Virus record (IMG/VR): IMGVR_UViG_3300025133_006513
Location: 1-53,288 of that record
Direction: 5' to 3' (one strand)
From: a virus
Taxonomy: Duplodnaviria > Heunggongvirae > Uroviricota > Caudoviricetes
Length of the DNA: 53,288 bases
Shown here one piece after another: positions 3 to 51,318 of the stretch (the first letter of the stretch is position 1; every line of letters starts with the position of its first letter). The position numbers and the translations under genes were made by a program. Under the pieces are notes generated by a model that was not told the origin of the DNA, ran no database searches, and saw only the letters and a program-made list of their open reading frames with translations.

Positions 3-3000
3 CATCGCTATTTCCTGGACCCAGAGACTGGCATCTTTAGAGTCCAGTTTGGGCAAGCACGTATGCCGTTGATGCCAGTGCTCAAAGCACTGGGTGCCAC
101 GGACAGTCAGCTCCGTAAGGCGTGGGGCAACGAGTTATTCGTTGCCAACGCCAAGAAGACGGACCCGACTACGCTCAAGAAGCTCTACCGCAAGGTTACC
201 CGGAACAAGTCGCCTGAGAATGACGAAGAGATGCATCAGGCTATCCGGAACGCCTTCGCTGACATGGAGCTCGATCCCGAGGTTACTGCTCGAACCCTCG
301 GTAAACCATACGCCACTGTGAACCCAGAGGTTATCTTGGCTTCGACTGCCAAGCTGCTGCGGGTGCATAAGGGTGAGGAGAAGTCCGACGATCGTGATGC
401 TATGGCGTATCAGCGGGTTATGGGTCCAGAGGATCTATTCGCTGAGCGTATGCGTAAAGCTGGCGGTACCATGCGGAATGCCCTATGGAAAGCCACGCTT
501 CCAGGCAATCTAAAGCGTGTACCCCCTGGCCTGATGGACAAGATTGTCCGCGGGGCTATCATCGAGACAGGCCTGGGTAACCCCCTGGAAGAGATCAACC
601 CTGCGGAACTGTACGATCAACGCGTACGAGTGACACGCATGGGCGAAGGCGGTATCCCTAGTAACGACTCAGTGCCAGACGAGGCACGTAACGTACAGCC
701 AAGCCACTTGGGCTTCGTCGACCCAGTCCACACACCAGAATCAGGCAAGATCGGTATCGACGGACGCTTTGCTGTCAGAACCCTCAAGGGCAACGATGGC
801 CGGCTCTACGCTCGCTTCACCGATCCTAAGAATGGCAAACCAATCTGGAAGTCTCCCCAAGATGTTGCTGACGCGATCGTTGCGTTTCCAGGGGAGTTAG
901 AAAAGGGCGAACCTCATGTTCGTGTGCAGCATAAAGGCAAGCTGAAATTTGTTCCTAGGAACAAAGTTGACTATCAGCTTGGCCATATGACAGAGGCTTT
1001 CGGGCCCCTAGCGTCGATGATCCCGCTGAAGGGTGCAGCCTTCGGGCAGCGTATCTCTATGGGTAGTCGATTTCTTTCGCAGGCGCTACCGTTGGTCAAC
1101 GCAGAGTCCCCGCTCGTGCAATCGGGTGTCCCTGGTATGAAGGACACGTCGTTCGAAGACTTGCTTGGCGCCGATATGGGTGCTGTGAAGAGCGAAGTCG
1201 ACGGGACTGTGCTTGAGGTTACACCCAGTCACGTCAAAATACGAGGGAGGGATCGCCGTGTTCATTACGCCGAGCTCTACGAAAACCATCCGTATAACCG
1301 GAAAACCTTTGTTCACAATCGACCCACCGTTAAGGCGGGTGATGCAGTCAAAGCAGGACAACTGCTCGCTGCTTCCAATTTCACAGATGATGGAGGTACG
1401 ACAGCGCTTGGCAAGAACGCCCGAGTCGCGTACCTGCCCTACAAGGGATACAACTTCGAAGACGCAATCGTCGTCTCTGAGTCCTTCGCCAAGCGGGCTT
1501 CGAGCGAACACATGTACCAACACAGCCTCGATCTTGGCGAGGGCGTTAAAGCTAGCAAAAACGCTTACACCGCCATCCTCCCGGGTGAATACGATCGCAA
1601 ACAGCTAGATCGCTACGATGACGACGGAGTTATCAAGATTGGCGAGACAGTCCAGATGGACGAAGCACTGGTGCTGGCAGTGAAAGAACGACAGACGGGT
1701 CCACGACTTGGGCGACGTAAAGCCTCCTGGGGCGATGCATCGATTAAGTGGGAACACCATGAGGAGGGTATTGTTACCGATGTACACAAAGGCAAAAAAG
1801 GCTATTCGGTCGTCGTTAAATCCGTACACCCAACCAAGGTCGGCGATAAGTTCGCGGGTCGATACGGTGACAAAGGGGTTGTCGCAGCGATCGTACCCGA
1901 CGAAGACATGCCGCACGGGGCGGATAAAAGGCCCTACGAAGTGCTACTCAACCCGCTGGGCGTCATCGGCCGAGGTAATCCATCCCAAATCATCGAAACG
2001 CAGCTCGGTAAGATCGCCGCGATCACGGGCAAACCGTACAAACTGATTGACTTCGATGACTTGCGTGATCTTCGTGAGTTCACCGAGCAAGAGCTGCGTA
2101 AGCACGGGCTCAACGACACAGAGGACCTGATCGATCCTAAGACTGGGCGTACGCTCAAAGGCATCGAAGCAGGGAATCGATTCATGATGAAGCTCCACCA
2201 CACTGCAGAGGTTAAGCTCGGCGGTCGTGGTGCTGCTGGTGGTTATACGGCTGAGGGGGCACCCGCTAAGGGCGGAAAGTCGGGATCTAAGCGAGTTGGT
2301 ATGTTAGAGCTCAACGCTCTTTTGTCTCACGGAGCTTATCAGACTATCCGTGATGCCAACGTGGTACGCGGTCAGCGAAACGAAGATCACTGGCGAATGC
2401 TCATGTCCGGGTATACACCCCCAGAGCCTAAAGTTCCCTTCATGTACCAGAAGTTCATGGCACAGTTGAAGGGTGCTGGTATCAATCCAATCAAGGAGGG
2501 GTCCAAGCTCCAGATTCTGGCTATGACTGGCGAGGGGGCCAAAGAGCTTACTGGTAACAGGGAGATCAGAAGCTCTGAAACCGTCGACTGGCGTGTAAAC
2601 AAGCTCTCACCTATTAAAGGGGGTTTGTTCGACGAGGCCCTTACAGGTGGGCACGGAGGTAATCGCTGGAGTTACATCAAGCTACCAGAGCCTTTACCTA
2701 ACCCAGTGATGGAAGAACCTATCAGACGCATCCTCGGGCTAACGCAGAAACAGTACGCCTCTATCTTAAGTGGCGCAGACCACGTGCCTGGTCAGGAAGG
2801 ATTAACTGGGCCGATCGGTATTCAGACGGCATTAGAGGGGATCAACCTCGATAAGGAGATCGTCAAAGCCCGCGCGGATATCAAGTCAGGACGTAAGACA
2901 TACAGGGATAAAGCAGTTCGACGCTTAGAGTTCCTCAAGTCTGCCCAGAAGAACAAGCAACATCCTCGTGAGTGGATGATGGACAGAATCCCGGTATTAC

Positions 3001-3908
3001 CGCCGATCTTCCGTCCAGTGAGCATGTTCGCTGAGACTAACACGCAACTGGTCGATGACTCGAACTACCTCTACAAGGAGGCGTTCGAAGCCGCCGAGAA
3101 CCTAAAGGCACTCGGGAAGATCAGTGATGATGTGTCTGAGGAGCGATTAGCGGTCTACAAGGCTTTCAAGGCTGTCACCGGCCTGGGCGACCCTTTATCC
3201 CCTGAATTCAAGGAACAAGATGTCAAAGGTATCCTTAAGCACGTCTTCGGAACCAGTCCTAAGCATGGTACAGTGCAGAAGAAGCTGCTTGGTAGCACTG
3301 TCGACCTCGTCGGACGGGCTACTATTACGCCAAACCCTAACCTGGATATGGATCAAGTAGGGTTACCGATCGAGGAAGCGTGGACGCTGTATCAGCCGTT
3401 TGTTATTCGTAGGTTGGTTCGTCGTGGGATGGGAAAAGTCAAAGCAATGGAGGAGGCTAAGGCCCGATCGCCTTTAGCGTTGAAGGAGCTGCAGGGCGAG
3501 ATGAAAGAGCGTCCAGTGGTTATTAACCGTGCACCGGTATTGCACCGCTACGGGGTTATGAGCTTCTGGCCACAGCTTACGTCATCGAGCACGCTGGAGA
3601 TTCCGCCGCTAGTCGTCGGGGGTTTTGGGGCTGACTTCGATGGTGATGCGATGCAGTTTCACATCCCTGCGAGTGAGGGAGCAGTTGAGGAAGCAAAATC
3701 AACGTTGATGCCGTCACGAAACTTACACGCTGCTGGTGACTTCGATGTACACTATAAGCCGAGCCATGAGTATGTAGGCGGGTTATGGGCAGCGTCGACG
3801 AAGGACTCGAAGAAACCACCCAGAGTATTTAAGACAAAGAAGGACGCGATCGCTGCTTACCGCAAAGGATCGATCGATGTTGGACAGCGTGTTGAGATCA
3901 TGGAGTAA
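3..3908 (+). CDS. rpoB-rpoC fusion: Phage multisubunit RNA polymerase: beta subunit (5'-truncated at window edge) fused in frame to N-terminal half of beta'
   Basis: Frame is open from nt 3 to the ATG at 63, so the gene begins upstream. Beta motifs: RNVQPSHLGFVDPVHTPES, GYNFEDAIVVSE, GDKFAGRYGDKGVV, LLNPLGV, KRVGMLELNAL. Beta' motifs follow without a stop: GLFDEALTG, PVLPPIFRP, LLGSTVDLVGRATI, NRAPVLHR, catalytic GADFDGD (3627-3647). Confidence 0.96.
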   Translation, partial: HRYFLDPETGIFRVQFGQARMPLMPVLKALGATDSQLRKAWGNELFVANAKKTDPTTLKKLYRKVTRNKSPENDEEMHQAIRNAFADMELDPEVTARTLGKPYATVNPEVILASTAKLLRVHKGEEKSDDRDAMAYQRVMGPEDLFAERMRKAGGTMRNALWKATLPGNLKRVPPGLMDKIVRGAIIETGLGNPLEEINPAELYDQRVRVTRMGEGGIPSNDSVPDEARNVQPSHLGFVDPVHTPESGKIGIDGRFAVRTLKGNDGRLYARFTDPKNGKPIWKSPQDVADAIVAFPGELEKGEPHVRVQHKGKLKFVPRNKVDYQLGHMTEAFGPLASMIPLKGAAFGQRISMGSRFLSQALPLVNAESPLVQSGVPGMKDTSFEDLLGADMGAVKSEVDGTVLEVTPSHVKIRGRDRRVHYAELYENHPYNRKTFVHNRPTVKAGDAVKAGQLLAASNFTDDGGTTALGKNARVAYLPYKGYNFEDAIVVSESFAKRASSEHMYQHSLDLGEGVKASKNAYTAILPGEYDRKQLDRYDDDGVIKIGETVQMDEALVLAVKERQTGPRLGRRKASWGDASIKWEHHEEGIVTDVHKGKKGYSVVVKSVHPTKVGDKFAGRYGDKGVVAAIVPDEDMPHGADKRPYEVLLNPLGVIGRGNPSQIIETQLGKIAAITGKPYKLIDFDDLRDLREFTEQELRKHGLNDTEDLIDPKTGRTLKGIEAGNRFMMKLHHTAEVKLGGRGAAGGYTAEGAPAKGGKSGSKRVGMLELNALLSHGAYQTIRDANVVRGQRNEDHWRMLMSGYTPPEPKVPFMYQKFMAQLKGAGINPIKEGSKLQILAMTGEGAKELTGNREIRSSETVDWRVNKLSPIKGGLFDEALTGGHGGNRWSYIKLPEPLPNPVMEEPIRRILGLTQKQYASILSGADHVPGQEGLTGPIGIQTALEGINLDKEIVKARADIKSGRKTYRDKAVRRLEFLKSAQKNKQHPREWMMDRIPVLPPIFRPVSMFAETNTQLVDDSNYLYKEAFEAAENLKALGKISDDVSEERLAVYKAFKAVTGLGDPLSPEFKEQDVKGILKHVFGTSPKHGTVQKKLLGSTVDLVGRATITPNPNLDMDQVGLPIEEAWTLYQPFVIRRLVRRGMGKVKAMEEAKARSPLALKELQGEMKERPVVINRAPVLHRYGVMSFWPQLTSSSTLEIPPLVVGGFGADFDGDAMQFHIPASEGAVEEAKSTLMPSRNLHAAGDFDVHYKPSHEYVGGLWAASTKDSKKPPRVFKTKKDAIAAYRKGSIDVGQRVEIME

Positions 3909-5010: not shown

Positions 5011-6894
5011 GTGCTGCGTACTACTATCGGACAGTTGATGACTAACGAGGCGTTGCCTCCCGATATGCGCGATTACACCCGGGTCATGGATAAAAAAGGA
5101 ATCACGGAGGTATTACGTGTTCTTGCCGAGAAACACCCAGACAAATACCGCGAAGTGGCTAAGAAGCTTTCAGACGTGGGGCGAGATATTGCTTACACTA
5201 CCGGCGGAAGCTCCTTTGGTCTTAAGCATATGCGTCCTACACCTTCTGTACTGATGTCCCGTCAGCGGTTGAATAGACGCCTCCGCGATATCCTCTCCAA
5301 CCCTCAATGGGATGATGATATCAAAGAGCAGAAGGTTGTTGAGGCCACATCGGTCGAACACGAGCGACTCCAGAAAGAGATCCTGGAAGAGGCTAAGAAG
5401 TCTGGGAACCCTCTGGCAGATCAGGTGGTATCTGGTGCCCGTGGTAACCCCGCTGGACTGAAACGCTTGATCGGTGGTGACATGATGTATGTCGATCACC
5501 ATGAGGATGTAATCCCGTTCCCTGTCCAGCGTAGCTTCGCTGAGGGCCTCGGCCCGGCCGACTTCTGGGCGTCGACGTATGGAGCCCGTAAGGGCTTGAT
5601 CGACGTGAAGTTCGCTACACAGGACGCAGGGTTCTTCTCCAAACAACTCAACCAACTGGCACATCGACTGCTCGTTACCCATCATGACGACGAAAACGAA
5701 GCAGATCCTACGGCACCTGTGCGAGGGATGCCTGTCGATGTAAGTGATGGCGACAGCGAAGGATCGCTGTTAGCCGCACCGGTTGGTGAGTATCCACGAA
5801 ACACCACGCTGACTCCCAAGATCCTCCAGGACCTGGAAAACCAGGGCATTGCGAAGATTTTGGTCAGAAGCCCTATCGTTGGTGGCCCTCCTGGTGGTGG
5901 TGTCTACTCCCGAGACGTTGGCGTGAGAGAACGAGGCGGTATGGCCCCGATAGGGGATATGGTTGGTATCGCCGCAGCACAGACACTGTCTGAGAAGCTA
6001 ACCCAAGGCCAGTTGTCATCCAAGCACTCAGGTGGTGTTAAGGGTGAAGCCAAGAGCGTGACAGGCTTCCAGCACGTCAATCAGCTTGTGCAGGTGCCCA
6101 AGACCTTTAAGGGCGGAGCAGCCCACGCACAGATCGACGGCAAGGTTACAAACGTGGAAGAAGCCCCGGCTGGCGGGCAGTACGTTACCGTTAATGCCAA
6201 ACGTCACTTCGTGGCGCCAGGCTTTGACCTCAAAGTTAAGCGAGGCGACCATGTCGAAGCAGGAGACGTCATCTCCGAGGGAATTCCCAACCCCTCGGAG
6301 ATCGTTAAACACAAAGGCATTGGGGAAGGGCGTCGATACTTCGTTGATACTTTTGCTGATGCTTATCGTGCTGGCGGCATGTATGCCAATCGTCGCAATA
6401 TTGAGCTGGTGGCTCGTGGGTTGATCGATCATGTCGAGATGATGGACGAAGATGACGACCACGTACCCGGCGATGTAGTTGGATACCAGCAGCTGGAAAC
6501 CAACTGGAAGCCCCGCGACGGCTCTCAACGACTACAACCAGATGAAGCGACGGGCAAGTACCTCGAACGCCCCGTGTTGCATTACACGATCGGTACGAAG
6601 GTAAAGCCATCAATGCTGCCACAATTCAAACAGTTCGGTGTTAATGACCTGGAAGTGCATGACGAAGAGCCCCCGTTCAAACCACATATGGTGCGAGCAA
6701 TGGCATCCATCGGACACGACCCTGACTGGATGACCCGGTTCCTGGGTTCCAATCAGAAGAAGAGCTTGTTGAACGCAACGCACAGAGGTGCTACATCTTC
6801 CGCGGAGAATACGAGTTTTGTGCCAGCAATGGCGGAAGGCTTAGATTTCGGGAAGACGTGGCCACAATCGATATTGAAGCCCCCTACCACCTAG
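5011..6894 (+). CDS. rpoC (C-half): Phage RNA polymerase beta' subunit, C-terminal half
   Basis: GTG start with GGGGAG RBS. TTIGQL (cf. TTVGR), SGARG, bridge-helix region STYGARKGLIDVKFATQDAGFFSKQL, trigger loop GIAAAQTLSEKLTQGQLSSKHSGG. Confidence 0.95.
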   Translation: MLRTTIGQLMTNEALPPDMRDYTRVMDKKGITEVLRVLAEKHPDKYREVAKKLSDVGRDIAYTTGGSSFGLKHMRPTPSVLMSRQRLNRRLRDILSNPQWDDDIKEQKVVEATSVEHERLQKEILEEAKKSGNPLADQVVSGARGNPAGLKRLIGGDMMYVDHHEDVIPFPVQRSFAEGLGPADFWASTYGARKGLIDVKFATQDAGFFSKQLNQLAHRLLVTHHDDENEADPTAPVRGMPVDVSDGDSEGSLLAAPVGEYPRNTTLTPKILQDLENQGIAKILVRSPIVGGPPGGGVYSRDVGVRERGGMAPIGDMVGIAAAQTLSEKLTQGQLSSKHSGGVKGEAKSVTGFQHVNQLVQVPKTFKGGAAHAQIDGKVTNVEEAPAGGQYVTVNAKRHFVAPGFDLKVKRGDHVEAGDVISEGIPNPSEIVKHKGIGEGRRYFVDTFADAYRAGGMYANRRNIELVARGLIDHVEMMDEDDDHVPGDVVGYQQLETNWKPRDGSQRLQPDEATGKYLERPVLHYTIGTKVKPSMLPQFKQFGVNDLEVHDEEPPFKPHMVRAMASIGHDPDWMTRFLGSNQKKSLLNATHRGATSSAENTSFVPAMAEGLDFGKTWPQSILKPPTT

Positions 6895-26854: not shown

Positions 26855-27508
26855 ATGCTTCAAGAACGCTTCTATTTCTTTGTAGGTGCTGAAGCGGCTG
26901 CGGGTGGTGAAACTGCCACCCCCAGTCCTGCCGTGATTACTTTTACGGCTGTTGCACCTACACTAGACCTGAGCGTTAGCCCGAGTCCTGCTGTGATTGA
27001 CTTCACAGCGGTGGCTCCGGCACCCTCTATCAGCGTCACAGCAACAGCCGCAGCGATCGATTTCACCGCGGTGACGCCAACGGTCAGTGTAAGCGTGTCA
27101 CCGTCGCCAGCAGCTATTACATTCACCGCCGTATCGCCGACGCTTGCCGTCAGCGTGGCGCCCGCAGCTGCAGCAATTGACTTCGCAGCCGTAGTGCCTT
27201 CGTTGGGCCTCAGCGTAAGCCCCAGCCCTGCTGCGATCACGTTTACAGCAGGCACAGGAACCCCAGCACTCGGGGCCATTACGATACCCAGCCCGGCTGT
27301 GATCACGTTTACAGCAGTGACGCCGACCTTAGACCTCAGCGTAGCGACAAGCCCCGCAGTGATCGATTTCACGGCTGTGGCCCCATCTGTGGCGATTAGC
27401 GTTAGCCCGAGCCCCGCCGTGATCGATTTCGTACCGGTGGTTCCCTTAGCTAGCGCGGGCAGTATTGCGTTATACTGGCATCACCTGAACACCATGCACA
27501 CGAGATAA
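26855..27508 (+). CDS. Ala/Pro/Thr/Ser-rich repeat fibre protein (217 aa)
   Basis: Nine approximately 20-aa repeats, consensus SPAVI(T/D)FTAV.P...SVSP. Confidence 0.8.
   Translation: MLQERFYFFVGAEAAAGGETATPSPAVITFTAVAPTLDLSVSPSPAVIDFTAVAPAPSISVTATAAAIDFTAVTPTVSVSVSPSPAAITFTAVSPTLAVSVAPAAAAIDFAAVVPSLGLSVSPSPAAITFTAGTGTPALGAITIPSPAVITFTAVTPTLDLSVATSPAVIDFTAVAPSVAISVSPSPAVIDFVPVVPLASAGSIALYWHHLNTMHTR
26924..27454 (+). repeat. Degenerate 60-bp in-frame tandem repeat (9 units)
   Basis: Recurrent AGYCCYGCHGTGATY...TTCACDGC.GT units encoding the 20-aa repeat. Confidence 0.85.
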
Positions 27509-37703: not shown

Positions 37704-38137
37704 TGCTCCACGCCTATTGTACGGGCGTGCTTGATCTCCGTGGCGACATATTAGACCTGAAATACTGGCAGAGAATCAGGATGGTTGTCGATCATATCGA
37801 GAGCTCGCTGTGGGTGGAGTATTACAAACATCAGCATGACTTCAATTTGGCGTTGATCGACTACAGCAATGAGGATGACACCTTTAAGCTGCATCATCGC
37901 CAGTTGGAGCAGCTTAGGAGCAGCATGGCCAAAGAACGTATGCCGTGGGAGAAGCTCGGTGATGACACACTGCAAGATACGATTGGAGCACTACGTGAAG
38001 GTTACTTAAAACGGTTCCCTGCTCCGCGTAGCGAGAAGGGCAAGGAAGCCATCGCAAAACAATTAGCCATCTGGAAGGAGCAACGCCGTGGGATCGTTTC
38101 AGGGCCCAAATCAGCCAAGCGGGAGTTATTCCGGTAA
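37703..38137 (+). CDS. Tail assembly chaperone C-terminal extension (gpT-like)
   Basis: In the -1 frame relative to the upstream chaperone; likely expressed as a G-T fusion. Confidence 0.75.
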   Translation: MLHAYCTGVLDLRGDILDLKYWQRIRMVVDHIESSLWVEYYKHQHDFNLALIDYSNEDDTFKLHHRQLEQLRSSMAKERMPWEKLGDDTLQDTIGALREGYLKRFPAPRSEKGKEAIAKQLAIWKEQRRGIVSGPKSAKRELFR

Positions 38138-40076
38138 CGCGATGCTGGACATGATGGTCCAAATGTTTGGATCTAAGCTCCTGCCTCCCGGTATGGTCTT
38201 AGGGCAATGGAACCCTAACCAGCCACTGGGTGACACCTTAGAGGCTCGCGAGTTTGGCCAAGGCCAAATGGGTGCAGCTATGGGTCTCGGCGGGCCTGCA
38301 GCTACACAGCACGTCCAAGAGCTAATCCAAGGCCGCGCCGGCAGTACGAATGGCGGGCTTGTTGGGATGGGTGTGCTCGACGAGAGCATATTTGGTGCCG
38401 GTAACCTGCAGACTGAGGATATTTCTAAGGCTGTCGGCGCTGCCATGCCGTACCTGTCGATGGCGTCTCCACAGCTGTTAGATATGATGGGTCCGGGCGC
38501 AGGGATGAGCGGGATGGGCTCCAACTATGCCTCAATGATGAGAGGCAATGGCTTGAATTCGGGCCAGCTCACAGACCGAGCTGTTACACTTGGGCAGGAC
38601 GTCAGCAGCCAGCTCTACGGCGGGAACAGTGGTGATTTCTCCCAGACCATGGGAATCGGGTACTCCGAAGGTAGTGCCCTGCTTCGCGGTGCCGGCAACA
38701 TGGGTATTGCACCCACAGGTGCACAGTTACTCGGTATGGGCAGGACAGAAGCCCGTGAAGCTGCGTCAAAGGCTACGATGGACCTGTCACACGGTTCTGC
38801 GGCTATTCGTGACCTGGGTGGGCATTATGCTGCAATGAACCCCGAACAACGAATGACGACGCTCGATCAGCTATCGATGGGTAGGTTGTCCGCTGGCGAG
38901 AATGCTGCAGGTCTCGGTATGCAGGTACGCCAATTCAAGCAGACCACCAGGGCGGCAGGGCTCAGTCTCGGGGAAGGCCAGGGCTTGATGCAGATTGCTG
39001 GCGCTCGTTCGGCCGCGCTTGGCGGTAACATGCAGTCAGGGACAGTAGGGGGCTCACACGCTGCCGCTTACGGTGCCTTCTTGAACAGTGATAAAGGTGC
39101 AGGCTATGTCTCGGCGGCTGGCGTTAGTTCGAATACGCTGCTGCAGCAAGATGCTGTGCTTACAGCCCAGGCCGGGCGGAGCAATACAGCGGCAAACGCC
39201 TCAGCACTGATGGAAATGGGTGAGGCAGGTATGCTAGAGGGCGAAGCACTGAAAAAATATGAGTCCTTGAAAGAAGGTAAGTACGAGGCCATGGGTGACG
39301 GTGCCTTCCGTAGCATGCTTAAAAAGAGTGGTATGAATATGAACGTAGCCAGTACGATTATGAGCAACCGCGAGGAGAACCTTGCGAATCACGGGGACTC
39401 TGTAGCTGGTGCTGTCCGCGGCAGCCAATGGAACGCGGATATCGCGCCATCCATGCAGCGTGACGTTGCCAACGCGATGGGTGCAGCCGGAGGTGGAGCA
39501 TTCTCGACCAAGCAGACGATGAACGCTGGGGCTATGGTCGCAGAAACATTGAAAGGCATGGGCGGGAAGTCGCGTAAGGAAATGATAGACGCAGTGGCGG
39601 CTAAGTACCAAGCTGACGGCATGAACGAACAGCAGGCCCAGAACGCCGCACGTGTTAGCGTGAGTGCTGCAGGGATGTCGGTAAGGAAGAAGGGCTATAA
39701 GGGCGGCATTGGCCACGCTGTGTCGCTGCATGGGGATGAAGTCGCAGGCGGTGTTGCCGATCAAGAGGGCAGGGCAGCAACAAAAGCGCAAGAAGAAGCA
39801 GATACCGCAGATCAGGGGCAAAAAGGCCCGTGGGCGCGACTCGCAGACGGTATCAAGGATGGTACTAAAAGTGCCGCAGAGTTCTTTGCCAAAGTGATTG
39901 GTGGCGTTAAGAAACCAGCAAGCGGTAGTGGAGACACAGATGCCAGCGGCAGTGACAGCGACGGCAGTGGCGGTATTCCAAAGGTGAAAATCGATGGTAC
40001 CGTTTCCGTGGTCGTGCACGGTGCAGGTGATGTGCCCGATACAGGGTCGGGAATGGGTTCAACGATGGGGCCATAA
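38088..40076 (+). CDS. Tape measure protein
   Basis: 662 aa, Gly/Ala/Met-rich and helical, follows the G/GT pair; GTG start with AAGGAG (alternative ATG 38142); no Cys. Confidence 0.8.
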   Translation: MGSFQGPNQPSGSYSGNAMLDMMVQMFGSKLLPPGMVLGQWNPNQPLGDTLEAREFGQGQMGAAMGLGGPAATQHVQELIQGRAGSTNGGLVGMGVLDESIFGAGNLQTEDISKAVGAAMPYLSMASPQLLDMMGPGAGMSGMGSNYASMMRGNGLNSGQLTDRAVTLGQDVSSQLYGGNSGDFSQTMGIGYSEGSALLRGAGNMGIAPTGAQLLGMGRTEAREAASKATMDLSHGSAAIRDLGGHYAAMNPEQRMTTLDQLSMGRLSAGENAAGLGMQVRQFKQTTRAAGLSLGEGQGLMQIAGARSAALGGNMQSGTVGGSHAAAYGAFLNSDKGAGYVSAAGVSSNTLLQQDAVLTAQAGRSNTAANASALMEMGEAGMLEGEALKKYESLKEGKYEAMGDGAFRSMLKKSGMNMNVASTIMSNREENLANHGDSVAGAVRGSQWNADIAPSMQRDVANAMGAAGGGAFSTKQTMNAGAMVAETLKGMGGKSRKEMIDAVAAKYQADGMNEQQAQNAARVSVSAAGMSVRKKGYKGGIGHAVSLHGDEVAGGVADQEGRAATKAQEEADTADQGQKGPWARLADGIKDGTKSAAEFFAKVIGGVKKPASGSGDTDASGSDSDGSGGIPKVKIDGTVSVVVHGAGDVPDTGSGMGSTMGP

Positions 40077-40555: not shown

Positions 40556-41013
40556 TCAACCACGTGCGAACGCTGCTGCAGAATAGATCACATAAACACC
40601 CTAGCGACGAATTTGTACCACCTGATTTCACACCGATGGCGTGCCCGCCGGTTGTGCAGAAGATCAAGCGAATCCTCTGGGGTCGCACTCCTGTCAGTCA
40701 GTTACGTATCTGGCAGGTTATGCAGTTACTACATGCGTCAGAGTTAGAAGAGCACGTGCTTGCGACAGACGGCCGTGTAACTTACCTGCCGTTTGATGAT
40801 AAGTACTTCGGGAAGGTGGACATAGATCTGACAGTCTTCATACCTGAGTTACAGACGACACTGACACCTGATGACGACATCGCACTGTTCGACGACCTGT
40901 CGATCGAACCCAATCGCACATTCTACGAGTTGTGGAAGAAACACGATCAAGTTCCATATAAACTAGGCGGGCTTATGCTGGCCGTCGTAGCTGCCACAGA
41001 AAGGGCACGTTAA
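40552..41013 (+). CDS. Hypothetical baseplate-region protein (153 aa)
   Basis: ATGA coupling; lies within the baseplate block. Confidence 0.75.
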   Translation: MINHVRTLLQNRSHKHPSDEFVPPDFTPMACPPVVQKIKRILWGRTPVSQLRIWQVMQLLHASELEEHVLATDGRVTYLPFDDKYFGKVDIDLTVFIPELQTTLTPDDDIALFDDLSIEPNRTFYELWKKHDQVPYKLGGLMLAVVAATERAR

Positions 41014-42677
41014 TGTCTTACGCCTCAATTGATTTCAACTTGTGGGCAGATATCGACGGCACTGTTGTCGAGCTGGTGCAGTTCGCTTGCAACTACGAAA
41101 TGAATAACATTCCCAGCTGCACAGCTGTGCTTCCCGTCGGGTATACAGCTGTGTTTCCGCACTTGCCGTCAACCGCGCACGGTGCGACAGCGGGATTGCA
41201 GCTACAGGTCCCACTCACTGTTTGGGTCACATCCACCTTGGCCAGCAGCGACTCCGCAGGTATCTGGCCTGCAGGTACGTACAAACTATTCTGCGGTTGG
41301 GTTACGGGTGTAGGCTACCGCCGTACGCATACCGGCTACGCCATGACGATCGAAGGCACGCACTGGCTCTCAGCCTTATCCTTTGCATCGACACTGAGCT
41401 CTACAAGCCACCCGCATAACCCTGCGGATTTCATCTTCAACAGTCAGATCGAGATGGATGGGAGTGGTGGCTCGTTGACGCATCAAACTGTACGTACTGC
41501 CGCACAATCTGTCTGCACAGGCCCTAATATTCAGAAGGACCTCTGGGGTGACGCATTGAAGCCCTGGTTTGATGAGCTTGCGTGTAAAGATCGCATCAAC
41601 ATCTTGTATTTCCCCGCAGGGGATAAGAACGATAGTACGAAGTTTCAAGCCAAAGCTGCGTTAGACCTGATTAACGCGGGACCGGGTGCCCCTACATTAC
41701 CATTTAATGTAGGCGGTGCTGACGCAAATCATGCTGCTCTGGCGATCGCTGACGATATTGCTGTGTCTACGCTAACGCCGTCCAACGCCGGTAATACCAT
41801 GAACGCGATGGCACACACCACGTTCTGGGATAAGATCGTTGGCGAGCTGTCGGGGAAATACCACTTCAAATTAATACCATTTCCAGATAGGGCGTCGATC
41901 GTACCCTTTGTCCCTGGTCTGCGGGCTGAGTGGAACCCCGGCGGCGGCGCTGCCACGCTTCTCGCTAGAGATATGAGTCATCAAGACCTCAATTGTCACC
42001 TGCCACGCCCTATCCGCGGTGTAGGGTACTTCGCAGGACAAGGCGCGAAATCAGGCGGTAATCTGTCGCACAACGACAGCGTAACTAATGGTGACATGGG
42101 TGGGATGTACATCGGAAGAGATGACGGTATGGTGATCATTAAGCGAGCACCCAAGTATCTCTCTGAATACATGCTCCCCGTCGTATATTCGCGTAATGCA
42201 GCGGGACTCGCGGATGTGCGAGGTAACGCGTTCAACCACCCGGGGGTCGGCACTAAAGACGCTAACCCTAAGGACCCTGATGCTGTTAAGGGTGACCAGA
42301 AGATATTACTCGTTGAGCTCGCACACGCCACGTATGTGAATGAGTTACTCAGGCAGCGGTATGGTGATATTGTAGGAGCCGTGCGGTTCGACATCTCACC
42401 GGGGTCTACAATATCCTTCCAAGGCACAGAAGGTAGCTTACTTCCTACTGGCGGCGAGAAAAGGTACGGTGCGGTGATGCGTGTATCGCATTTCTTCGAT
42501 GCACAGCACCAGCGGTGTCAGACAGGCTTCCGGCTGACCCATGTACGTACAGAAGCTGAGCATTACAGCGACAATTACACAGTTACAGCACATCCGCTAT
42601 ATAGCCAGGCGTTTGACGGTGACTACAATCTGTATCTCGGCGGCGCTTCTTGTCCGTCCATGATAGGTAGTTGTTAA
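41013..42677 (+). CDS. Baseplate hub protein (gp27/gp44-like)
   Basis: 554 aa; ELVQFACNYEMNNIPSCTAVL...LFCGWVTGVGY...MTIEG; C-terminal VRFDISPGS...VMRVSH. Confidence 0.7.
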   Translation: MSYASIDFNLWADIDGTVVELVQFACNYEMNNIPSCTAVLPVGYTAVFPHLPSTAHGATAGLQLQVPLTVWVTSTLASSDSAGIWPAGTYKLFCGWVTGVGYRRTHTGYAMTIEGTHWLSALSFASTLSSTSHPHNPADFIFNSQIEMDGSGGSLTHQTVRTAAQSVCTGPNIQKDLWGDALKPWFDELACKDRINILYFPAGDKNDSTKFQAKAALDLINAGPGAPTLPFNVGGADANHAALAIADDIAVSTLTPSNAGNTMNAMAHTTFWDKIVGELSGKYHFKLIPFPDRASIVPFVPGLRAEWNPGGGAATLLARDMSHQDLNCHLPRPIRGVGYFAGQGAKSGGNLSHNDSVTNGDMGGMYIGRDDGMVIIKRAPKYLSEYMLPVVYSRNAAGLADVRGNAFNHPGVGTKDANPKDPDAVKGDQKILLVELAHATYVNELLRQRYGDIVGAVRFDISPGSTISFQGTEGSLLPTGGEKRYGAVMRVSHFFDAQHQRCQTGFRLTHVRTEAEHYSDNYTVTAHPLYSQAFDGDYNLYLGGASCPSMIGSC

Positions 42678-42689
42678 CAGGAGAAACCC

Positions 42690-43430
42690 ATGCCAAAGAA
42701 TATGCTAGAGCCTGACTACCAGTTGCCATATGACAATTGGGTAGCTGATCCATCCCCTACGAACACTGGGCAGCTGATTAAAGCTGTCAAACCGGTGCTG
42801 AGTTCAGCGGTGCGAGCGTACGGGGGTACGTCTGCCAGGAGCACGAACATTAAGTCACAGGCCAAGCGTATGGCTGCCGACGCCTTCAGTTCGTATGATC
42901 CAGCACGGGGCACATTGAAATCACACCTCATGTCACGCCTTCAGCGGTTACGCCGAGTGGCAGCCCAGCAGCGGCAGGTCATCCGTGTCCCAGAGCAGGT
43001 AGCTCTCGATCAGATGCGATCGGACGCTGCGACACGTGAATTGGAAGAGAGCCTGGGTTATCCTCCATCAGACCAGCAACTCGCGGATTACACGAATTTG
43101 TCGCTTAAACGCCTCGCATACATCAGAGGGAGTGAGCGCCCACTCGCGGAGAGTACGATTTCGCGTGGTGGCGAGGAGGGCCTTGGTGGCTACGATCCGC
43201 GGGTTCGATCGCTAGCAAAACCCGCAGACGCGTGGGAGGAGCTTATCTACGATGACATCGATGAGACTAACCAGTTCATTATGGAGCGTGTGCTCGGAAT
43301 GCACGGACATCAGCCAACCAAGCCCAGTCAGGTGGCTGTGATGTTGAAAATTAGCCCTGCCGCCGTAAGCCATCGCATGGCCCAGATTCAAGCAAAACTG
43401 GACAAGCGAGAAGACTTGGGGATGATCTAA
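42690..43430 (+). CDS. Sigma70-family sigma factor (group 3, FliA/WhiG-like)
   Basis: Region 2 LIKAVKPVLSSAVRAY...YDPARG; IRVP; region 3 LEESLGYPPSDQQLADYTNLS; region 4 HTH TKPSQVAVMLKISPAAVSHR; GGAG RBS. Confidence 0.9.
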   Translation: MPKNMLEPDYQLPYDNWVADPSPTNTGQLIKAVKPVLSSAVRAYGGTSARSTNIKSQAKRMAADAFSSYDPARGTLKSHLMSRLQRLRRVAAQQRQVIRVPEQVALDQMRSDAATRELEESLGYPPSDQQLADYTNLSLKRLAYIRGSERPLAESTISRGGEEGLGGYDPRVRSLAKPADAWEELIYDDIDETNQFIMERVLGMHGHQPTKPSQVAVMLKISPAAVSHRMAQIQAKLDKREDLGMI

Positions 43431-43858
43431 TGCCACTAGCTGTTGACGCACAATTCACCATCTTAATGACGTCGATGTGCACGTTCTCGGACTCGATCGC
43501 GGATTATTATAAGGATGCCGGCACACAGCGGGTGTGGATGGTACCGACCGCTGTTGGCTGGTCCCTCGACTCCGTCGACCCGTCCGATATGAGCGACCCT
43601 TTCGATCGTATCGGACCTAATGGGCTGTACACGGCAGAGTATGATGGTACCGGTAGTGACGAGGTTCGAGGCATCATGGGATCACACATACAAATTGGTT
43701 ACATGGGCATGATGGAGCGATCGTTTCGCGAGCGGCACAAAACACCTACCCGCGCCATGCTGCATGTCGCTGGCCGACGCATGGCTCACGGCGACACGGT
43801 AGATGGCGTACATAAGGCAGGTGTTGAAAACTACGTTACGGATTTATTCAACGCATGA
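43430..43858 (+). CDS. Hypothetical protein (142 aa)
   Basis: TAATG coupling to the sigma gene. Confidence 0.75.
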   Translation: MPLAVDAQFTILMTSMCTFSDSIADYYKDAGTQRVWMVPTAVGWSLDSVDPSDMSDPFDRIGPNGLYTAEYDGTGSDEVRGIMGSHIQIGYMGMMERSFRERHKTPTRAMLHVAGRRMAHGDTVDGVHKAGVENYVTDLFNA

Positions 43859-44277
43859 GCACCGATATTACAGCATGGCAACTCGTTGATGACTTCATTA
43901 TCCCGCAGTATGATGATGGACAGCTTGCTGAGGGTACTTTCGATGTCCTGCAGCGGGTGCTGATGATCTTGTTGTCCGAGACTGACAGTGCCAGGTATGC
44001 GTTTGATCGCGACGCTCAGCGGGCCTGTGCGTTTATGTCTGCTTGGCGGCAGGGTGACATCAGTAACGAAGCAGATGTGTTACGTATATTCTCACTCTGC
44101 CAGAGCCAAGTCAAAATGGCTATGGACAGCCAAGAGACAGATGAGGACCCACCAGAGAGGCAGTTCAAATCGCTGGAGATACTGCGGATTGTTGTGCAGC
44201 CAGGGACTGTGCAGCTGCGTTGCAAGTTAGAGACACAAGCAGACTCACTGCTATTCACGTTACCGATACCGATCTAG
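43855..44277 (+). CDS. Baseplate wedge gp25/GpW-like protein
   Basis: 140 aa before baseplate J; VLQRVLMILLSE...EDPPERQFKSLEIL...VQLRCKL. Confidence 0.7.
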   Translation: MSTDITAWQLVDDFIIPQYDDGQLAEGTFDVLQRVLMILLSETDSARYAFDRDAQRACAFMSAWRQGDISNEADVLRIFSLCQSQVKMAMDSQETDEDPPERQFKSLEILRIVVQPGTVQLRCKLETQADSLLFTLPIPI

Positions 44278-44285
44278 GAGATACG

Positions 44286-45443
44286 ATGTACTGGCCGGGA
44301 CTTGATGAGCTAGATGCAGAGCATGTGGAGTTTGCACACGCGATAATCCTGCAGATGATCGAAGAGAAGTGTCCTTCTTTGAACGCTGACCGCGGTGTCG
44401 TCGGGTCTTTGGTCACGGAGCTGCACGCCATCTTCCAAGGCTGCAGCATGCAAGCGATCGACAAGCTCCAGCACTCACTATGTGCCCGCGATGTTGCGGT
44501 AGACCCCAGCAGTGCACTCCCCGCAGCGGTCGACGCCTTGGCGTCTAACTTCCGGGTACACCGTAAGATTTCCAGAAAAGCCACAGGAACCATCACTGTC
44601 GTGCTTAATCGCGCGTCTGGTGATAGTTTTGGTACGAATACCAAGTTTCGCGCGAACGGGCAGTTCTTTTACGTGACACAGAAGGTTATCGTTAAGCCAC
44701 AGGTCCGCGGACCGCATGATGTCGCGGCGGTACAGCTTGAAGCAGGCACATACAGCGTACAAATCCCAGTAATTGCCAATGAAGTGCACCCAGCCGCCAT
44801 GCTGCATCGTTTTGACAAGCTGGTGCCCTTGATACGCCCGCCGGGCTTCGTCGACGCGTATGCGACAGCTGATTTTGTCGGCGGTGTGACTCCCCAATCA
44901 AATAAGCAACTCGTTGACCAGTTTAGAGTTAGCCTCGCTACCCCTGGATTTTCCAACGTAGATTGCATTAAGGCACTTGTACATCAGAGTGGCGTCGACG
45001 TTTCGGATATTGCGGTTATCGGAGCTCGTGATGACGAGATGACCCGCGACCATAACGCTGATGGCGTGTCTGTCGGTGGTTGCCTGGACATTTACATCCG
45101 GATCGACGGGCCTTGGGCTCGCCACATCGCTGACATCCAGGAATATCTGGATAATCCAGATGTGAGACAGCCCGGGCTAAGTGTGAAAGTCATGGCAGCC
45201 ACTCCCGTGCAGGTCGACGTACAGGTGAAGGCCAAAGGCTTCGCTGACCATGACGCCATTCACGAAAACCTAGCTAAATATGTGAATGGATTACCCATTG
45301 GCACGCCACCCACGCAGTTCCAACTGGTCCGGGCGGTGCAAGACATAGATGGTGTTGAAGATGTGTCATTCGAGATGGCCAACGCCTTCGATAAGACGTG
45401 TGCAGCCTACTTAAACCGTGATATTCTGATCAAATTGCAGTGA
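44286..45443 (+). CDS. Baseplate J-like wedge protein
   Basis: Start re-called at ATG 44286 (TAGGAG RBS); KATGTITV, ATADFVGG, VIGARDDEMTRD, GGCLDIYIR, VMAATPVQV. Confidence 0.8.
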   Translation: MYWPGLDELDAEHVEFAHAIILQMIEEKCPSLNADRGVVGSLVTELHAIFQGCSMQAIDKLQHSLCARDVAVDPSSALPAAVDALASNFRVHRKISRKATGTITVVLNRASGDSFGTNTKFRANGQFFYVTQKVIVKPQVRGPHDVAAVQLEAGTYSVQIPVIANEVHPAAMLHRFDKLVPLIRPPGFVDAYATADFVGGVTPQSNKQLVDQFRVSLATPGFSNVDCIKALVHQSGVDVSDIAVIGARDDEMTRDHNADGVSVGGCLDIYIRIDGPWARHIADIQEYLDNPDVRQPGLSVKVMAATPVQVDVQVKAKGFADHDAIHENLAKYVNGLPIGTPPTQFQLVRAVQDIDGVEDVSFEMANAFDKTCAAYLNRDILIKLQ

Positions 45444-46387
45444 CCATGTACAAATACCCTGAACTCACCCGCGATGACCCTGCGCACGTCCTTGGCTTGC
45501 TCGGATCACTCTGGACCCTCTATTATGGGGGGCGCGCCCCCCTTCTTGCGCTCGTGCAGGCTAATTTAGAGTTAATTAAGCAAAGTAAGCAGAACCTGGA
45601 CGAAGCAGCCGCGTGCGCGAGCCGCTTTACAGTCCCCCTTGCACATACCGAGGTTTGGACCCTATTTCAGCTCAAAGGCTCTGAATGCACCGAGAAATCG
45701 TTCCCAGCCCCGCCTGGACTGCTAAGTATGCCTGTGATGATGAATCGGATGACCGACGCCACGCTGATGCTGCAGGAGGGGATCGATTACCGCTTAAACG
45801 CTAATCGTCTAGAGTTCGCTAAAGACCCCTTTGAAGACGACAGAATCCCACAAATGGACGATACAGTGTACCTCTGGGGCTTCCGAGGCCTGTTTAATCG
45901 CAAATACGTCGATCGATCGATCAGTCACGCCATGAACGTCGTTATTTCGGATGCAACGCAGAAGAGATACCGCGATACCACCAACGCTATCACAAATTGT
46001 GCTGTCGGTGGCACCACAATCACTAATTTGACCGCTGTTTTGGCCACATACCTGGATATTCCGCTGGCTGACGGTGAGGAGGTCATAGAGGGCGTCGGAG
46101 AGGACCGCAGGGGGCGTTTCCTGATGACATCGCGGCACATAAGGCGGATGACGCCTGAAACCGTAGTAAGCCTCAAAACAGGCTCTCAGCCGCCCGCAGG
46201 GACGCCATTATTCGATTGTTTCCGTATTTTGGACGATTCTGAGCTCCCAACTACTAATTCGTCACAAATTAGTAGTAAATTAGTAGTTGAGCTCGCATCG
46301 CCACTGGTTACAGACGAATTGCAAGCAATACTGCACCGCGTGGTGCCCCCGCAGATAGGATTGGCGTTCGTATCGCCTGAGGAATAA
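45440..46387 (+). CDS. Baseplate wedge protein (gpI/gp7-like)
   Basis: Follows baseplate J; LGLLGSLW N-terminus and LHRVVPPQ C-terminus. Confidence 0.65.
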   Translation: MTMYKYPELTRDDPAHVLGLLGSLWTLYYGGRAPLLALVQANLELIKQSKQNLDEAAACASRFTVPLAHTEVWTLFQLKGSECTEKSFPAPPGLLSMPVMMNRMTDATLMLQEGIDYRLNANRLEFAKDPFEDDRIPQMDDTVYLWGFRGLFNRKYVDRSISHAMNVVISDATQKRYRDTTNAITNCAVGGTTITNLTAVLATYLDIPLADGEEVIEGVGEDRRGRFLMTSRHIRRMTPETVVSLKTGSQPPAGTPLFDCFRILDDSELPTTNSSQISSKLVVELASPLVTDELQAILHRVVPPQIGLAFVSPEE

Positions 46388-48390
46388 TGGTCAACCTAGA
46401 GTCCTGCTCACACTCAGAATTTTCCTACGACTGGAAAAGCCCCACCCCTGGCGATTCCAGCCTTAGTTTCCCCAATGGCGAGTGCTCATTCTGGAAATGG
46501 TGCCCATGTTGGCCGTACGAGTGGGATATATGCTCACGATCGTCCTCATCCTGTCCGATGGAGGACGTGACGAACGAAGGCTGCGACAGGGACGGTGCGT
46601 GGTACAACGTGTGCGGCGACGCGTGTCTCGGACCTCCGGGCTACGCAGGTACATTCTTTGGCGAAATGTCGATGATATGCCGCTGCCCGAACACGCAGCA
46701 TAACTCTAGCTCGTCATTGGTTCCCGATGACGGCGGAAGTTACTCTTGCCCTGTAGATTTCCCTGTGGGTGCCCCCTTTCCGTGGGATATGCACCGCTAT
46801 CCCACTGTAAACCAAGCAGAACAGGTGCCGCAGTACATTTTTCCGCCAGAACCGTGGGGCGAAGGCTCAAAAGGCTACTGGACGTGGTGTGCGAACGACG
46901 ATAATGACGAGGCGACGTATGTCGGTATGGGGCGATGCTTCCGCGCGTACGACCCCAATCGCGAAGAACCTTGCGACATCATCGACACGTATTGCCGTGA
47001 CGGTATGCTTGGCGGGAAACCAAAATACAGCAGCAGTAACGGTTGCTGGTGCGTGTGGTGGAACGGGTATTACTGGGTACTGTCTGCAGTGTGTAACGTA
47101 GCGTCGGGGGATGTCTGGATACTGGCACCAGAGAACGAAGACTGCCCGCTGGGCGAGTACACGCCACTCTCTGGTGACGCAGAAGGCAATATCCTGCTAA
47201 CACCCGACTGCGAAGATACAGATAAGTCGTTGACAGACTACGGCACAGGTAAATGGGTGTTCCGCGGCGGGCAGGAGCAACTAGGCCCGCCAAGTGATTA
47301 TGGTGTGGATGGCCGCTTTTACGGTGAGACAATCGCAGTAGGTTACTGCTGTGGCTCGTCCAGCTCACTGAAGGATGACTCAGAGTCATTTTCCTCGTCC
47401 AGTTTAAGCACATCCTGCTCGATGCCTGCTTATCCTTGGTTTGGCTGGGACGATAACCTTGAAGTATACCAAGCACCTGATAACGGTATTGTGGGCCTAG
47501 GTACTGGTGGCGAGGGTTGCGAGATACCTTACGGGTGTGCTGCGTGGTTGTGGTGCCAATGTAGCGACGGCCGGGCAAATAACTGTGCCACACACAACAC
47601 GGTGCCCTACACAGACCCAGGACGGTGGAAGCTCAACGAAGATTACGACATCATCGTCGAACCACAACAGCTGGCACACGGCGCCCCGCCAATACTCGGA
47701 CGATTCTTTGGTGAGATCTTGTGGTACTGCCCGTGCGATCACAGCGAGTCATCGCCATCTGTACCAATTAACTCGTCATCTTGTGGTGCTTTTGGCGGCT
47801 GTTCGATCGCCGATACCTTCACTGACGAGGACGATACCAGCATCCTCGACCATACGATGGACTCAGGGCACTCCTGGACAGCCGTCGAAGACCAAGCTGC
47901 GTTTATCGTAGGTAGCCGACTAGATATTGAATCAGGTGCTTTCCCGTCGCTGCATGATCACGGGTACTGGGTAGATTGTGGCAGCACTGTGCATGAGGTT
48001 TCAGGTGAGTTCGTGCTGAATGGCTGGCTGGTTGGGTTGATCGTGCGAGGCACAGGCACTAGGCCTGATTTTATAGCTGTGCACACAGAAGTAACCCAAG
48101 ATGAAATTTGTGTCTCTTCTGTGTCAGATGGCGGTGGTTACCTTGTTTACACCAATATCTACACCTACTCAATGTCGCTGAGTGCTGAACAATCGCTTAG
48201 CCTTCGTTGCCGCGTATGTAAGCATAGAATCAAGGTCTGGGCGGATGGCGACCTGGTGATTAATGAACCCACTACGCCGGCCATGTTCCCAGATACGGGC
48301 ACATGGGTGGGTATAGCCCACGATTGGAGCTCTGGTATTAATTGCTACGCCGACAACTTCTTCTGCAAAATCGGGTGTGAGGATTACTAG
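46387..48390 (+). CDS. Cys/Trp/Ser-rich tail fibre or receptor-binding protein with a C-terminal lectin-like beta-sandwich
   Basis: 667 aa with about 40 Cys; three GxF(F/Y)GE...CxC/CC...SSS modules; ConA/LamG-like C-terminus (GLIVRG...RIKVWADG...GTWVGI); located after the wedge genes. Confidence 0.65.
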   Translation: MVNLESCSHSEFSYDWKSPTPGDSSLSFPNGECSFWKWCPCWPYEWDICSRSSSSCPMEDVTNEGCDRDGAWYNVCGDACLGPPGYAGTFFGEMSMICRCPNTQHNSSSSLVPDDGGSYSCPVDFPVGAPFPWDMHRYPTVNQAEQVPQYIFPPEPWGEGSKGYWTWCANDDNDEATYVGMGRCFRAYDPNREEPCDIIDTYCRDGMLGGKPKYSSSNGCWCVWWNGYYWVLSAVCNVASGDVWILAPENEDCPLGEYTPLSGDAEGNILLTPDCEDTDKSLTDYGTGKWVFRGGQEQLGPPSDYGVDGRFYGETIAVGYCCGSSSSLKDDSESFSSSSLSTSCSMPAYPWFGWDDNLEVYQAPDNGIVGLGTGGEGCEIPYGCAAWLWCQCSDGRANNCATHNTVPYTDPGRWKLNEDYDIIVEPQQLAHGAPPILGRFFGEILWYCPCDHSESSPSVPINSSSCGAFGGCSIADTFTDEDDTSILDHTMDSGHSWTAVEDQAAFIVGSRLDIESGAFPSLHDHGYWVDCGSTVHEVSGEFVLNGWLVGLIVRGTGTRPDFIAVHTEVTQDEICVSSVSDGGGYLVYTNIYTYSMSLSAEQSLSLRCRVCKHRIKVWADGDLVINEPTTPAMFPDTGTWVGIAHDWSSGINCYADNFFCKIGCEDY

Positions 48391-51285: not shown

Positions 51286-51311
51286 CGCCATCGTGAAGAA
51301 TGGCGTCTTTT
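51286..51311 (+). terminator. Terminator ending the structural operon
   Basis: CGCCAT-CGTGAAGA-ATGGCG-TCTTTT. Confidence 0.6.
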
Positions 51312-51318
51312 CGGGCAT

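Follow-up and report, generated by a model that had tools for sequence, protein, structure and literature searches.

A σ factor gene that lies among the structural genes of a phage raises the question of which RNA polymerase (RNAP) its product serves, and when. Such a gene is located at 42690..43430 of a 53,288-nt stretch of viral DNA (hereafter the window), which forms the first third of a 153-kb IMG/VR record (IMGVR_UViG_3300025133_006513). This record was judged 71% complete and therefore points to a phage of about 200 kb or more. The sequencing runs listed as containing the stretch are DNA runs of marine metagenomes, produced in several studies; no RNA run is among them. A first-pass annotation, made from the DNA alone, had proposed that the σ factor is made late, together with virion parts, for use in the next infection or as late positive feedback, that it recognizes non-host promoters, and that it may need specially prepared templates because of a degenerate melting region. 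Our analysis favors, with a probability of roughly 0.6, a σ factor that is the specificity subunit of the phage's own RNAP, being made with virion parts, packaged, injected, and starting transcription in the next host.

The product of 42690..43430

The gene and the predicted parts of its product are the following:

42690..43430, + strand: σ70-family gene (P0001), 246 aa, zero cysteine; from the ORF (open reading frame) list, profile, and fold search
42680..42684, + strand: Shine-Dalgarno sequence AGGAG in the 12-nt gap between the stop of the upstream hub gene and the σ start; read from the sequence
42711..42989, + strand: σ domain 2 (aa 8-100); from the helices of the AlphaFold2 model and the HMMER alignment to SigB
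42993..43130, + strand: σ domain 3 (aa 102-147, region 3.0/3.1); from a sub-cut-off Pfam match to Sigma70_r3 and the alignment to SigA, SigB, and RpoS
43134..43223, + strand: acidic, Gly-containing linker (aa 149-178) with a pLDDT (predicted local distance difference test) below 50; putative region 3.2, named from its position
43230..43415, + strand: σ domain 4 (aa 181-242) with a helix-turn-helix; from the profile alignment to SigB, which includes region 4.2 and extends to position 240

Searches with the single sequence returned little. Pfam gave one match to Sigma70_r3 (E 2.8e-4, 21.4 bits, under the cut-off of 25.3) and none to Sigma70_r2 or Sigma70_r4, the RpoD-type matches in NCBIfam stayed sub-threshold (best 19.4 bits versus a cut-off of 384.5), and PHROGs yielded meaningless sub-threshold matches only. 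A tblastn search against 50,697 phage records had zero matches. The profile A1, which comprises 27 family members, retrieved σ factors as its top matches throughout when run against the PDB sequences (SigA 4e-7, SigB 3.6e-6, RpoS 8e-6). The alignment spans positions ∼55-240, that is, region 2.2 through region 4.2, and joins the protein from ∼55 onwards to region 2 of SigB and RpoS. The AlphaFold2 model has a pLDDT of 78.6, with residues 149-178 alone disordered, and the top 50 Foldseek matches of this model are all σ factors (from E 1.8e-7, probability 1.00). By hhalign, the protein matched Escherichia coli FliA at E 3.3e-5 and RpoD, in its C-terminal half, at E 4.1e-5. While the first search yielded 57 homologues, a profile search of 1.84 billion representatives yielded 640 clusters at E≤1e-30 and 1379 at E≤1e-10. 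PF04539 is precomputed on most of these relatives, PF04545 is carried by the homologue P0058, and weak matches to Sigma70_r4 (E 4.5e-4 to 7e-3, below the cut-off) were obtained for the orthologues in G001, G003, G004, and G005, four of the related genomes scanned. Since both the family profile and the fold search return σ factors, and Pfam by itself would be insufficient, the profiles and the predicted fold together identify the product as a divergent, compact σ2-σ3-σ4 member of the σ70 family. It belongs to a subfamily that has no curated model of its own, some members of which are already called σ factors by automatic annotation (JGI names and the record of Salmonella phage Arash).

Within domain 2, residues 47-63 correspond to the core-binding helix, and residues 74-90 form a segment resembling region 2.3/2.4 that contains His79, Gln85, and Arg89. 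All peptides on which the first-pass annotation had based its comparison were found: GTLKSHLMSRLQR at residues 74-86 and SPAAVSHR at 222-229 of the window protein and, as checked on strain MG1655, GYKFSTYATWWIRQ at 424 and TRERIRQ at 583 of RpoD and FTTYAVQRIRG at 67 of FliA. In the HMMER register, the positions of E. coli σ70 and their equivalents are:

F427-S-T-Y430-A: L76-K-S-H79-L in the window
Y430: His79 in the window; H in 97, F in 24, and Y in 15 of 136 family representatives
W433: Ser82 in the window; S, N, or T in the 136 representatives
W434: Arg83 in the window; Q, H, or N in the 136 representatives
Q437: Gln85 in the window; Q in 99 of 136
R441: Arg89 in the window; R in 135 of 136

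Compared with σ70, two residues are missing from the stretch that connects the conserved Gly and Pro, so that this register is uncertain by 2-3 residues, and the hhalign alignment to FliA places the segment differently from HMMER. The earlier statement that the aromatic melting residues are absent therefore needs to be divided. Both tryptophans (W433/W434) are indeed missing, as they are from the functional FliA of E. coli, but a ring residue (His, Phe, or Tyr) is kept at the position that HMMER aligns to Y430. Calling the melting region degenerate was thus an overstatement, and the proposed need for pre-melted, hairpin, or supercoiled templates, which rested on it, loses its basis: the segment resembles that of σ28, and nothing in region 2.3, as far as it can be read from the protein sequence, would argue against DNA melting. 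In region 4.2, the family motif (I/L)(S/T)P(G/A)A(V/I)SQR is strongly conserved and differs from TRERIRQ. From this altered helix it is a fair inference that the −35-type specificity differs and that non-host promoters may be recognized, as had been suggested.

A phage RNA polymerase and its probable link to the σ factor

The same window encodes an RNAP in two genes:

63..3908, + strand: phage RNAP β-β'N fusion without cysteine; Pfam Rpb2_6 (1.4e-54), Rpb1_2 (2e-23), Rpb2_3, and Rpb1_1
5011..6894, + strand: phage RNAP β' C-terminal subunit (β'C), 627 aa, without cysteine; Pfam Rpb1_5 (2.4e-21), tblastn match to Arash gp216 (7e-42)

The first ORF is cut by the contig start, and an identical full-length protein (P0059) has 1456 aa. 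The catalytic DFDGD is conserved in the fusion. Because both proteins are cysteine-free, both zinc sites of bacterial β' must, judging from these sequences, be gone from the phage enzyme. We found more than 1,600 related fusion proteins, many of them from contigs of 200-227 kb; inteins (PF14528, PF14890) are present in a number of these. In the 153-kb record, we detected neither a second set of RNAP genes nor, by Pfam, a further σ factor. The phage RNAP is a likelier partner of the σ factor than the host core enzyme.

The two also occur together in relatives. The RNAP fusion was detected in 20 of 29 σ-bearing records, including seven of the eight that are at least 90% complete, with one set per genome. 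It is always located upstream of the σ gene, on the same strand and tens of kb away. Among five relatives scanned (at least 90% complete), the σ gene is the sole Pfam-detectable σ-like gene in three (G001, G003, and G004); additional canonical σ genes are sporadic and were found in G002 and G005 only.

The complex that the σ factor would form with residues 800-1281 of the phage fusion was also predicted, from alignments A1 and A3, respectively, in three runs and next to three controls. The model reached an ipSAE (interaction prediction score from aligned errors) of 0.66, as opposed to 0.00 for the best of the three controls; in the calibration of the tool, 58 of 80 solved complexes but only two of 110 mismatched pairs attained this mark, counts that apply here only roughly because we supplied our own alignments. 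Contacts agree between the three runs to at least 60%, and the partner pLDDT is at least 73. In the predicted interface, β' residues 995-1033 face σ residues 21-31, 47-63, and 94-101, which is the canonical contact between σ2 and the clamp helix.

Cultured relatives provide a view of the virion. According to the RNAP, the closest ones are Salmonella phage Arash and the Vibrio phages D69, D148, and D181 (31% identity over the full length). Although out of reach of tblastn, the σ homologues of two of them are found by profile A1: gp10 of Arash (234 aa, annotated as a σ factor) at E 6.8e-21 and VPHD69_0011 of D69 (annotated as hypothetical) at E 1.5e-18. Both genes are located inside the tail/baseplate gene block; in Arash, a structural cell-wall hydrolase of 1165 aa (gp8) and then the small gp9 come before gp10, and the structural proteins gp11-gp14 come after it. 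Liquid chromatography-mass spectrometry of purified Arash particles detected Gp10 with 100% coverage, 24 unique peptides, and 467 spectra, next to the RNAP proteins Gp206 (RNAP β, 3516 spectra, the most of any protein) and Gp216 (1210 spectra) (PMC10585845). By our own crude arithmetic, this corresponds to 2.3 spectra per residue for Gp206 and 2.0 each for Gp216 and Gp10, whereas the baseplate neighbors Gp8, Gp13, and Gp14 have 0.66-0.98. This suggests that the abundance of the Arash σ factor tracks that of the RNAP and not that of its baseplate neighbors. The presence of a homologue in purified virions together with both RNAP subunits lends indirect support to the earlier proposal of a use in the next infection. 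We found no rifampicin or transcriptome data for Arash in the same paper (PMC10585845).

Arash encodes a second, larger σ factor, gp196 (L003 10048-11085, 345 aa with three cysteines), among helicase genes. It was considered as a member of the baseplate σ family and rejected, since the hhalign probability of 1.2 is at noise level. Among the listed rows of the virion table, which include Gp194 and Gp197, Gp196 does not appear. It is possibly a middle or late specificity factor.

The lack of cysteine is common to further proteins. The predicted ORFs of the 153-kb record contain 1.67% cysteine on average, and only seven of the 84 ORFs with 200 aa or more lack it altogether: those for the two RNAP subunits (1281 and 627 aa), the σ factor, and a tape-measure-like protein (662 aa), and the ORFs at 10830-12557, 26855-27508, and 125668-126387 (coordinates of the record, G000:C1). 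Across the σ family, we counted eight cysteines in 38,471 residues, with 140 of 148 representatives being free of them. In the RNAP family, this applies to 88 of 120 proteins, and most of the remaining cysteines occur in long, intein-bearing forms. The Arash proteins contain no cysteine in the 234 aa of gp10, one in the 1525 aa of gp206, four in the 606 aa of gp216, and none in the 1097 aa of gp4. A clade-wide avoidance of cysteine in the σ factor, the RNAP, and the tape measure, the last of which we take to exit the particle via the tail, would fit a common constraint on proteins that are carried in an extracellular particle and ejected. The products of 10830-12557, 26855-27508, 38088-40076, and 125668-126387 are accordingly candidates for co-ejected proteins.

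Position, timing, and rival explanations

The σ gene is surrounded by the following elements:

38088..40076, + strand: tape-measure-like gene, 662 aa, rich in Gly, Ala, and Met, no cysteine; putative function, from position and composition
41013..42677, + strand: probable baseplate hub gene, 554 aa, gpD/gp44/VgrG-like; the Atlas structure search gave TM (template modeling) scores by query of 0.50-0.55 against the clusters Phage_GPD, VgrG, and gp44-like
43430..43858, + strand: conserved 142-aa gene, coupled to the σ gene by TAATG and kept in relatives
43855..44277, + strand: gp25/sheath-initiator-like baseplate gene, 140 aa; Atlas structure TM score of 0.62 to Sheath_initiator clusters
44220..45443, + strand: gpJ/gp6-like baseplate wedge gene; phrog_6 (baseplate wedge subunit), E 2.3e-20
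51286..51305, + strand: terminator-like hairpin with a T-run, directly after the last gene of the co-directional structural block; from a pattern scan

The ORF starts 12 nt behind the hub ORF, which ends at 42677, and the last A of its stop codon TAA (43428-43430) is the first base of the ATG of the next ORF, just as the first-pass annotation had placed it; its hub label for the upstream gene is likewise supported by the structure search. That annotation had seen no promoter or terminator around the gene. Consistent with this, our scans of 36-52 kb stayed at chance level for both, with 14 terminator-like sites compared to 12.1 expected and 12 promoter-like sites compared to 13.0 expected, the latter with the σ70 consensus, which is uninformative on phage-specific promoters. 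Between 19929 and 51281, no two successive genes on the + strand are more than ∼180 nt apart, and the genes for the major capsid protein (17972), the tail sheath (31126), the baseplate, the RNAP, and the σ factor are all on one strand.

This arrangement is conserved. In nearly all of 29 IMG/VR loci from uncultured relatives, whose σ factors are between 73% and 26% identical to that of the window, the order of hub, σ factor, small genes, and gpJ-like wedge is kept, and the tape-measure-like gene is conserved upstream. In most of these loci, the spacing is −38 to +33 nt between the hub ORF and the σ ORF and −23 to +40 nt between the σ ORF and the one that follows, so there is no room for an intergenic promoter. 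Synteny with baseplate genes, which had been named as a check of the proposal, thus holds for these relatives as well as for Arash and Vibrio D69. Being locked in the baseplate block, the gene gives indirect support to an expression late and with virion parts.

From these observations, the following scenario can be drawn for the σ factor as the promoter-specificity subunit of the two-gene phage RNAP (β-β'N fusion plus β'C). With the RNAP genes beside the head genes and the σ gene between hub and wedge, all three would be expressed with the co-directional structural block; it is because of this one long block that RNAP and σ factor are probably made together with the virion parts. The holoenzyme or its parts would then be packed into the progeny particle and reach the next host along with the DNA, to transcribe from the first phage promoters without host σ factor or host core. 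Because most complete relatives possess one RNAP set and this σ factor, the same holoenzyme may also serve later gene classes, with other factors setting the timing.

Several points weigh against this scenario. With a single RNAP set that is made late, it does not explain what transcribes the middle and late genes. The relative G003 (187 kb, estimated 95% complete) has the σ gene, but RNAP β/β' was not detected in it by two Pfam models and the A3 profile; the RNAP gene may be located in the missing end, or this lineage may use the host core. Since many σ-β' complexes have been solved, the score of the predicted complex may simply reflect a likeness to these, and it does not distinguish phage from host core. 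Neither k-mer enrichment nor a home-made expectation maximization (EM) revealed a convincing promoter motif for the σ factor in the 153-kb record. The virion evidence comes from Arash Gp10, which is 19% identical to the window σ factor, and the 116 Arash "virion" proteins include ribonucleotide reductases, with the authors allowing for a carry-over of abundant proteins (PMC10585845). Finally, E. coli FliA is also free of cysteine, so that its absence from one σ factor is weak evidence.

Some of these points suit the strongest rival, a conventional phage σ factor that, like SPO1 gp28/gp34 or T4 gp55, redirects the host core to phage promoters of the late or middle class. The baseplate-operon position would then reflect only a late, possibly self-reinforcing, expression, and the virion signal would be carry-over, in line with a long Arash list that contains cytoplasmic enzymes. 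The protein is a σ70-family member, its region 2.2-like helix is of a type by which bacterial β' is bound, phage σ homologues usually act on host RNAP according to reviews (PMC13282480, PMC7824862), and G003 bears the σ gene without a detectable RNAP. Nevertheless, we regard this explanation as unlikely. The phage RNAP co-occurs in seven of the eight near-complete genomes, and in three of the five relatives scanned (again G001, G003, and G004) no σ-like gene other than this one is detectable by Pfam. The avoidance of cysteine is common to the RNAP and the tape measure but does not extend to Arash gp196, which is missing from the listed rows of the virion table, and the length-normalized spectral count of Arash Gp10 equals that of the RNAP subunits.

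It is distinctly improbable that the protein descends from a σ factor but acts as a structural or assembly protein of the baseplate or tail tip, without a role in transcription. It does occupy the slot of the central spike in many myophages, its position between the hub and the gp25-like gene is strictly conserved, its Arash homologue is present in particles, and its regions 2 and 4 are below the Pfam thresholds. But the full σ2-σ3-linker-σ4 architecture is kept, as are near-invariant residues of the DNA-reading type (Gln85, Arg89, and the S-Q-R of the region 4.2 helix), a surface binding the clamp helix is predicted with confidence, and the spectral abundance in Arash follows the RNAP instead of the baseplate neighbors. 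We give the least credence to an injected σ mimic that occupies the host core to shut off host transcription and does not open promoters for lack of the Trp pair: the equivalents of W433/W434 are absent and the Arash homologue is virion-associated, but FliA works without the same tryptophans, a ring residue is kept at the Y430 position, and a pure core-blocking decoy would not need the strongly conserved helix-turn-helix of region 4.2.

Returning to the σ factor as a subunit of the phage RNAP, the reading can be extended from this phage to its relatives, which include at least 640 σ clusters at 50% identity and more than 1,600 RNAP fusion proteins. At about even odds, a very large group of ∼150-230-kb phages, mostly marine and aquatic, relies on a self-contained, σ-dependent viral RNAP, made up of the β-β'N fusion, β'C, and a true σ70-family subunit, that is assembled late, packaged, and injected, with a near absence of cysteine marking the injected set (RNAP, σ factor, tape measure, and a few unknowns).

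Known systems and further observations

The system most similar to that of the window is that of Arash, which has a homologous σ factor in the tail/baseplate block and an RNAP of β-β'N fusion and β'C, with all three proteins in virions (PMC10585845). It differs in the sequence of gp10, the C-terminal helix of which lacks the SPAAVSQR motif, and in encoding gp196 as a second σ factor. The Arash paper tabulates Gp10, Gp206, and Gp216 as virion proteins without analyzing the system (PMC10585845). Phages phiKZ and AR9 likewise possess RNAPs of the β/β' type, of which the virion enzyme is injected for early transcription, and use an extra subunit for promoter recognition; they have virion and non-virion enzymes, and gp68 and gp226 are the specificity subunits (PMC13282480). 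In contrast to the one set with a β-β'N fusion described here, they contain two RNAP sets in 4-5 polypeptides, and while the σ70 factor of the window is recognizable by profile, they have no σ homologue that is recognizable by sequence (PMC13282480, PMC7824862).

Among bacterial proteins, the group 3 σ factors (σ28/FliA, SigB/SigF) share the compact σ2-σ3-σ4 layout of ∼240 aa without region 1.1 or the non-conserved insert, and FliA also shares the region 2.3 segment without both tryptophans. Unlike these, the window protein is below the cut-offs of Pfam and NCBIfam, has His in place of Tyr at the Y430 equivalent and the SPAAVS(H/Q)R helix, and stems from a virion structural operon that is accompanied by a viral RNAP. 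The concept of a carried enzyme is known from phage N4, whose virion RNAP travels in the particle and transcribes the early genes after injection; it is a single polypeptide that uses hairpin promoters and no σ factor. The gp66 protein of crAss-like phages is reportedly also a particle-carried transcription enzyme, injected for early genes and consisting of a single polypeptide without a σ factor. The concept is the same here, but nothing in our data shows hairpin promoters. The marine jumbo phages and "moraphages" of the literature were considered as known representatives and set aside, as they are different lineages that are either without RNAP or phiKZ-like.

According to two jumbo-phage reviews of 2021 and 2026, multisubunit phage RNAPs lack σ homologues, and σ factors are found in those phages that have no RNAP of their own and rely on the host core (PMC13282480, PMC7824862). 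We found no published analysis of a system that combines a σ factor with a multisubunit phage RNAP. Compared with other virion-packaged phage transcription machineries, the σ70-family subunit, its fixed location in the baseplate operon, and the cysteine-free signature thus appear to be new. If our reading is true, this would be the first σ-family initiation factor recognizable by sequence that is dedicated to a viral multisubunit RNAP, and it would be an exception to the rule given in the reviews, by which a phage has an RNAP or a σ factor but not both. This lineage has both, and the cultured Arash and Vibrio phage D69 make a σ-driven viral RNAP and the injection of a holoenzyme directly testable. 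It would also offer a simple σ-dependent RNAP of three polypeptides for structural and evolutionary work on the co-evolution of σ factor and core, make the avoidance of cysteine a sequence signature for predicting injected proteins, and show how infection by marine phages of an abundant group can begin without relying on transcription by the host.

In the neighborhood of the σ gene, the product of the coupled 142-aa gene gave a helical AlphaFold2 model (pLDDT 69) and has an invariant Trp36, Pro39, and Glu96 and several invariant Arg. Tests for a spike or an anti-σ factor gave no assignment: the helical model has zero fold matches in the PDB, and the leads from the Atlas (YomW, tail-terminator) are weak. 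It could be a baseplate part or a partner of the σ factor. Arash gp11, whose gene is at the matching position, was detected in virions. The wedge ORF at 44220..45443 has a weak tblastn match to Arash gp13, and PHROGs identified the tail sheath (31126) and one family of unknown function, and nothing else, among 20 other proteins of the window. Further downstream, 46387-48390 encodes a 667-aa protein of the fiber region with 40 cysteines (6%), adjoining a second 667-aa ORF with 14; the former probably forms a receptor-binding structure stabilized by disulfides or metal.

The k-mer and EM searches returned T-runs, Shine-Dalgarno sites, a weak GGCATTATAA motif in four copies, and an array of hairpin repeats. 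The copies of GGCATTATAA(G/T) are located at 51315 and 51932 of the window and at 91420 and 128152 of G000:C1, and three of the four are in intergenic DNA, 72-84 nt upstream of genes on the + strand. This motif resembles an extended −10 element and could represent a promoter class, of either host or phage. The hairpin array lies outside the window, at G000:C1:146000-147700, and comprises ∼15 copies of a ∼40-nt unit, TTGCCCCATCCAGGTCTAACGGTCTGGCTGGGGATTGCTT, spaced 86-112 nt apart. Its units occur in two stem variants with compensatory changes and are separated by GT-rich spacers.

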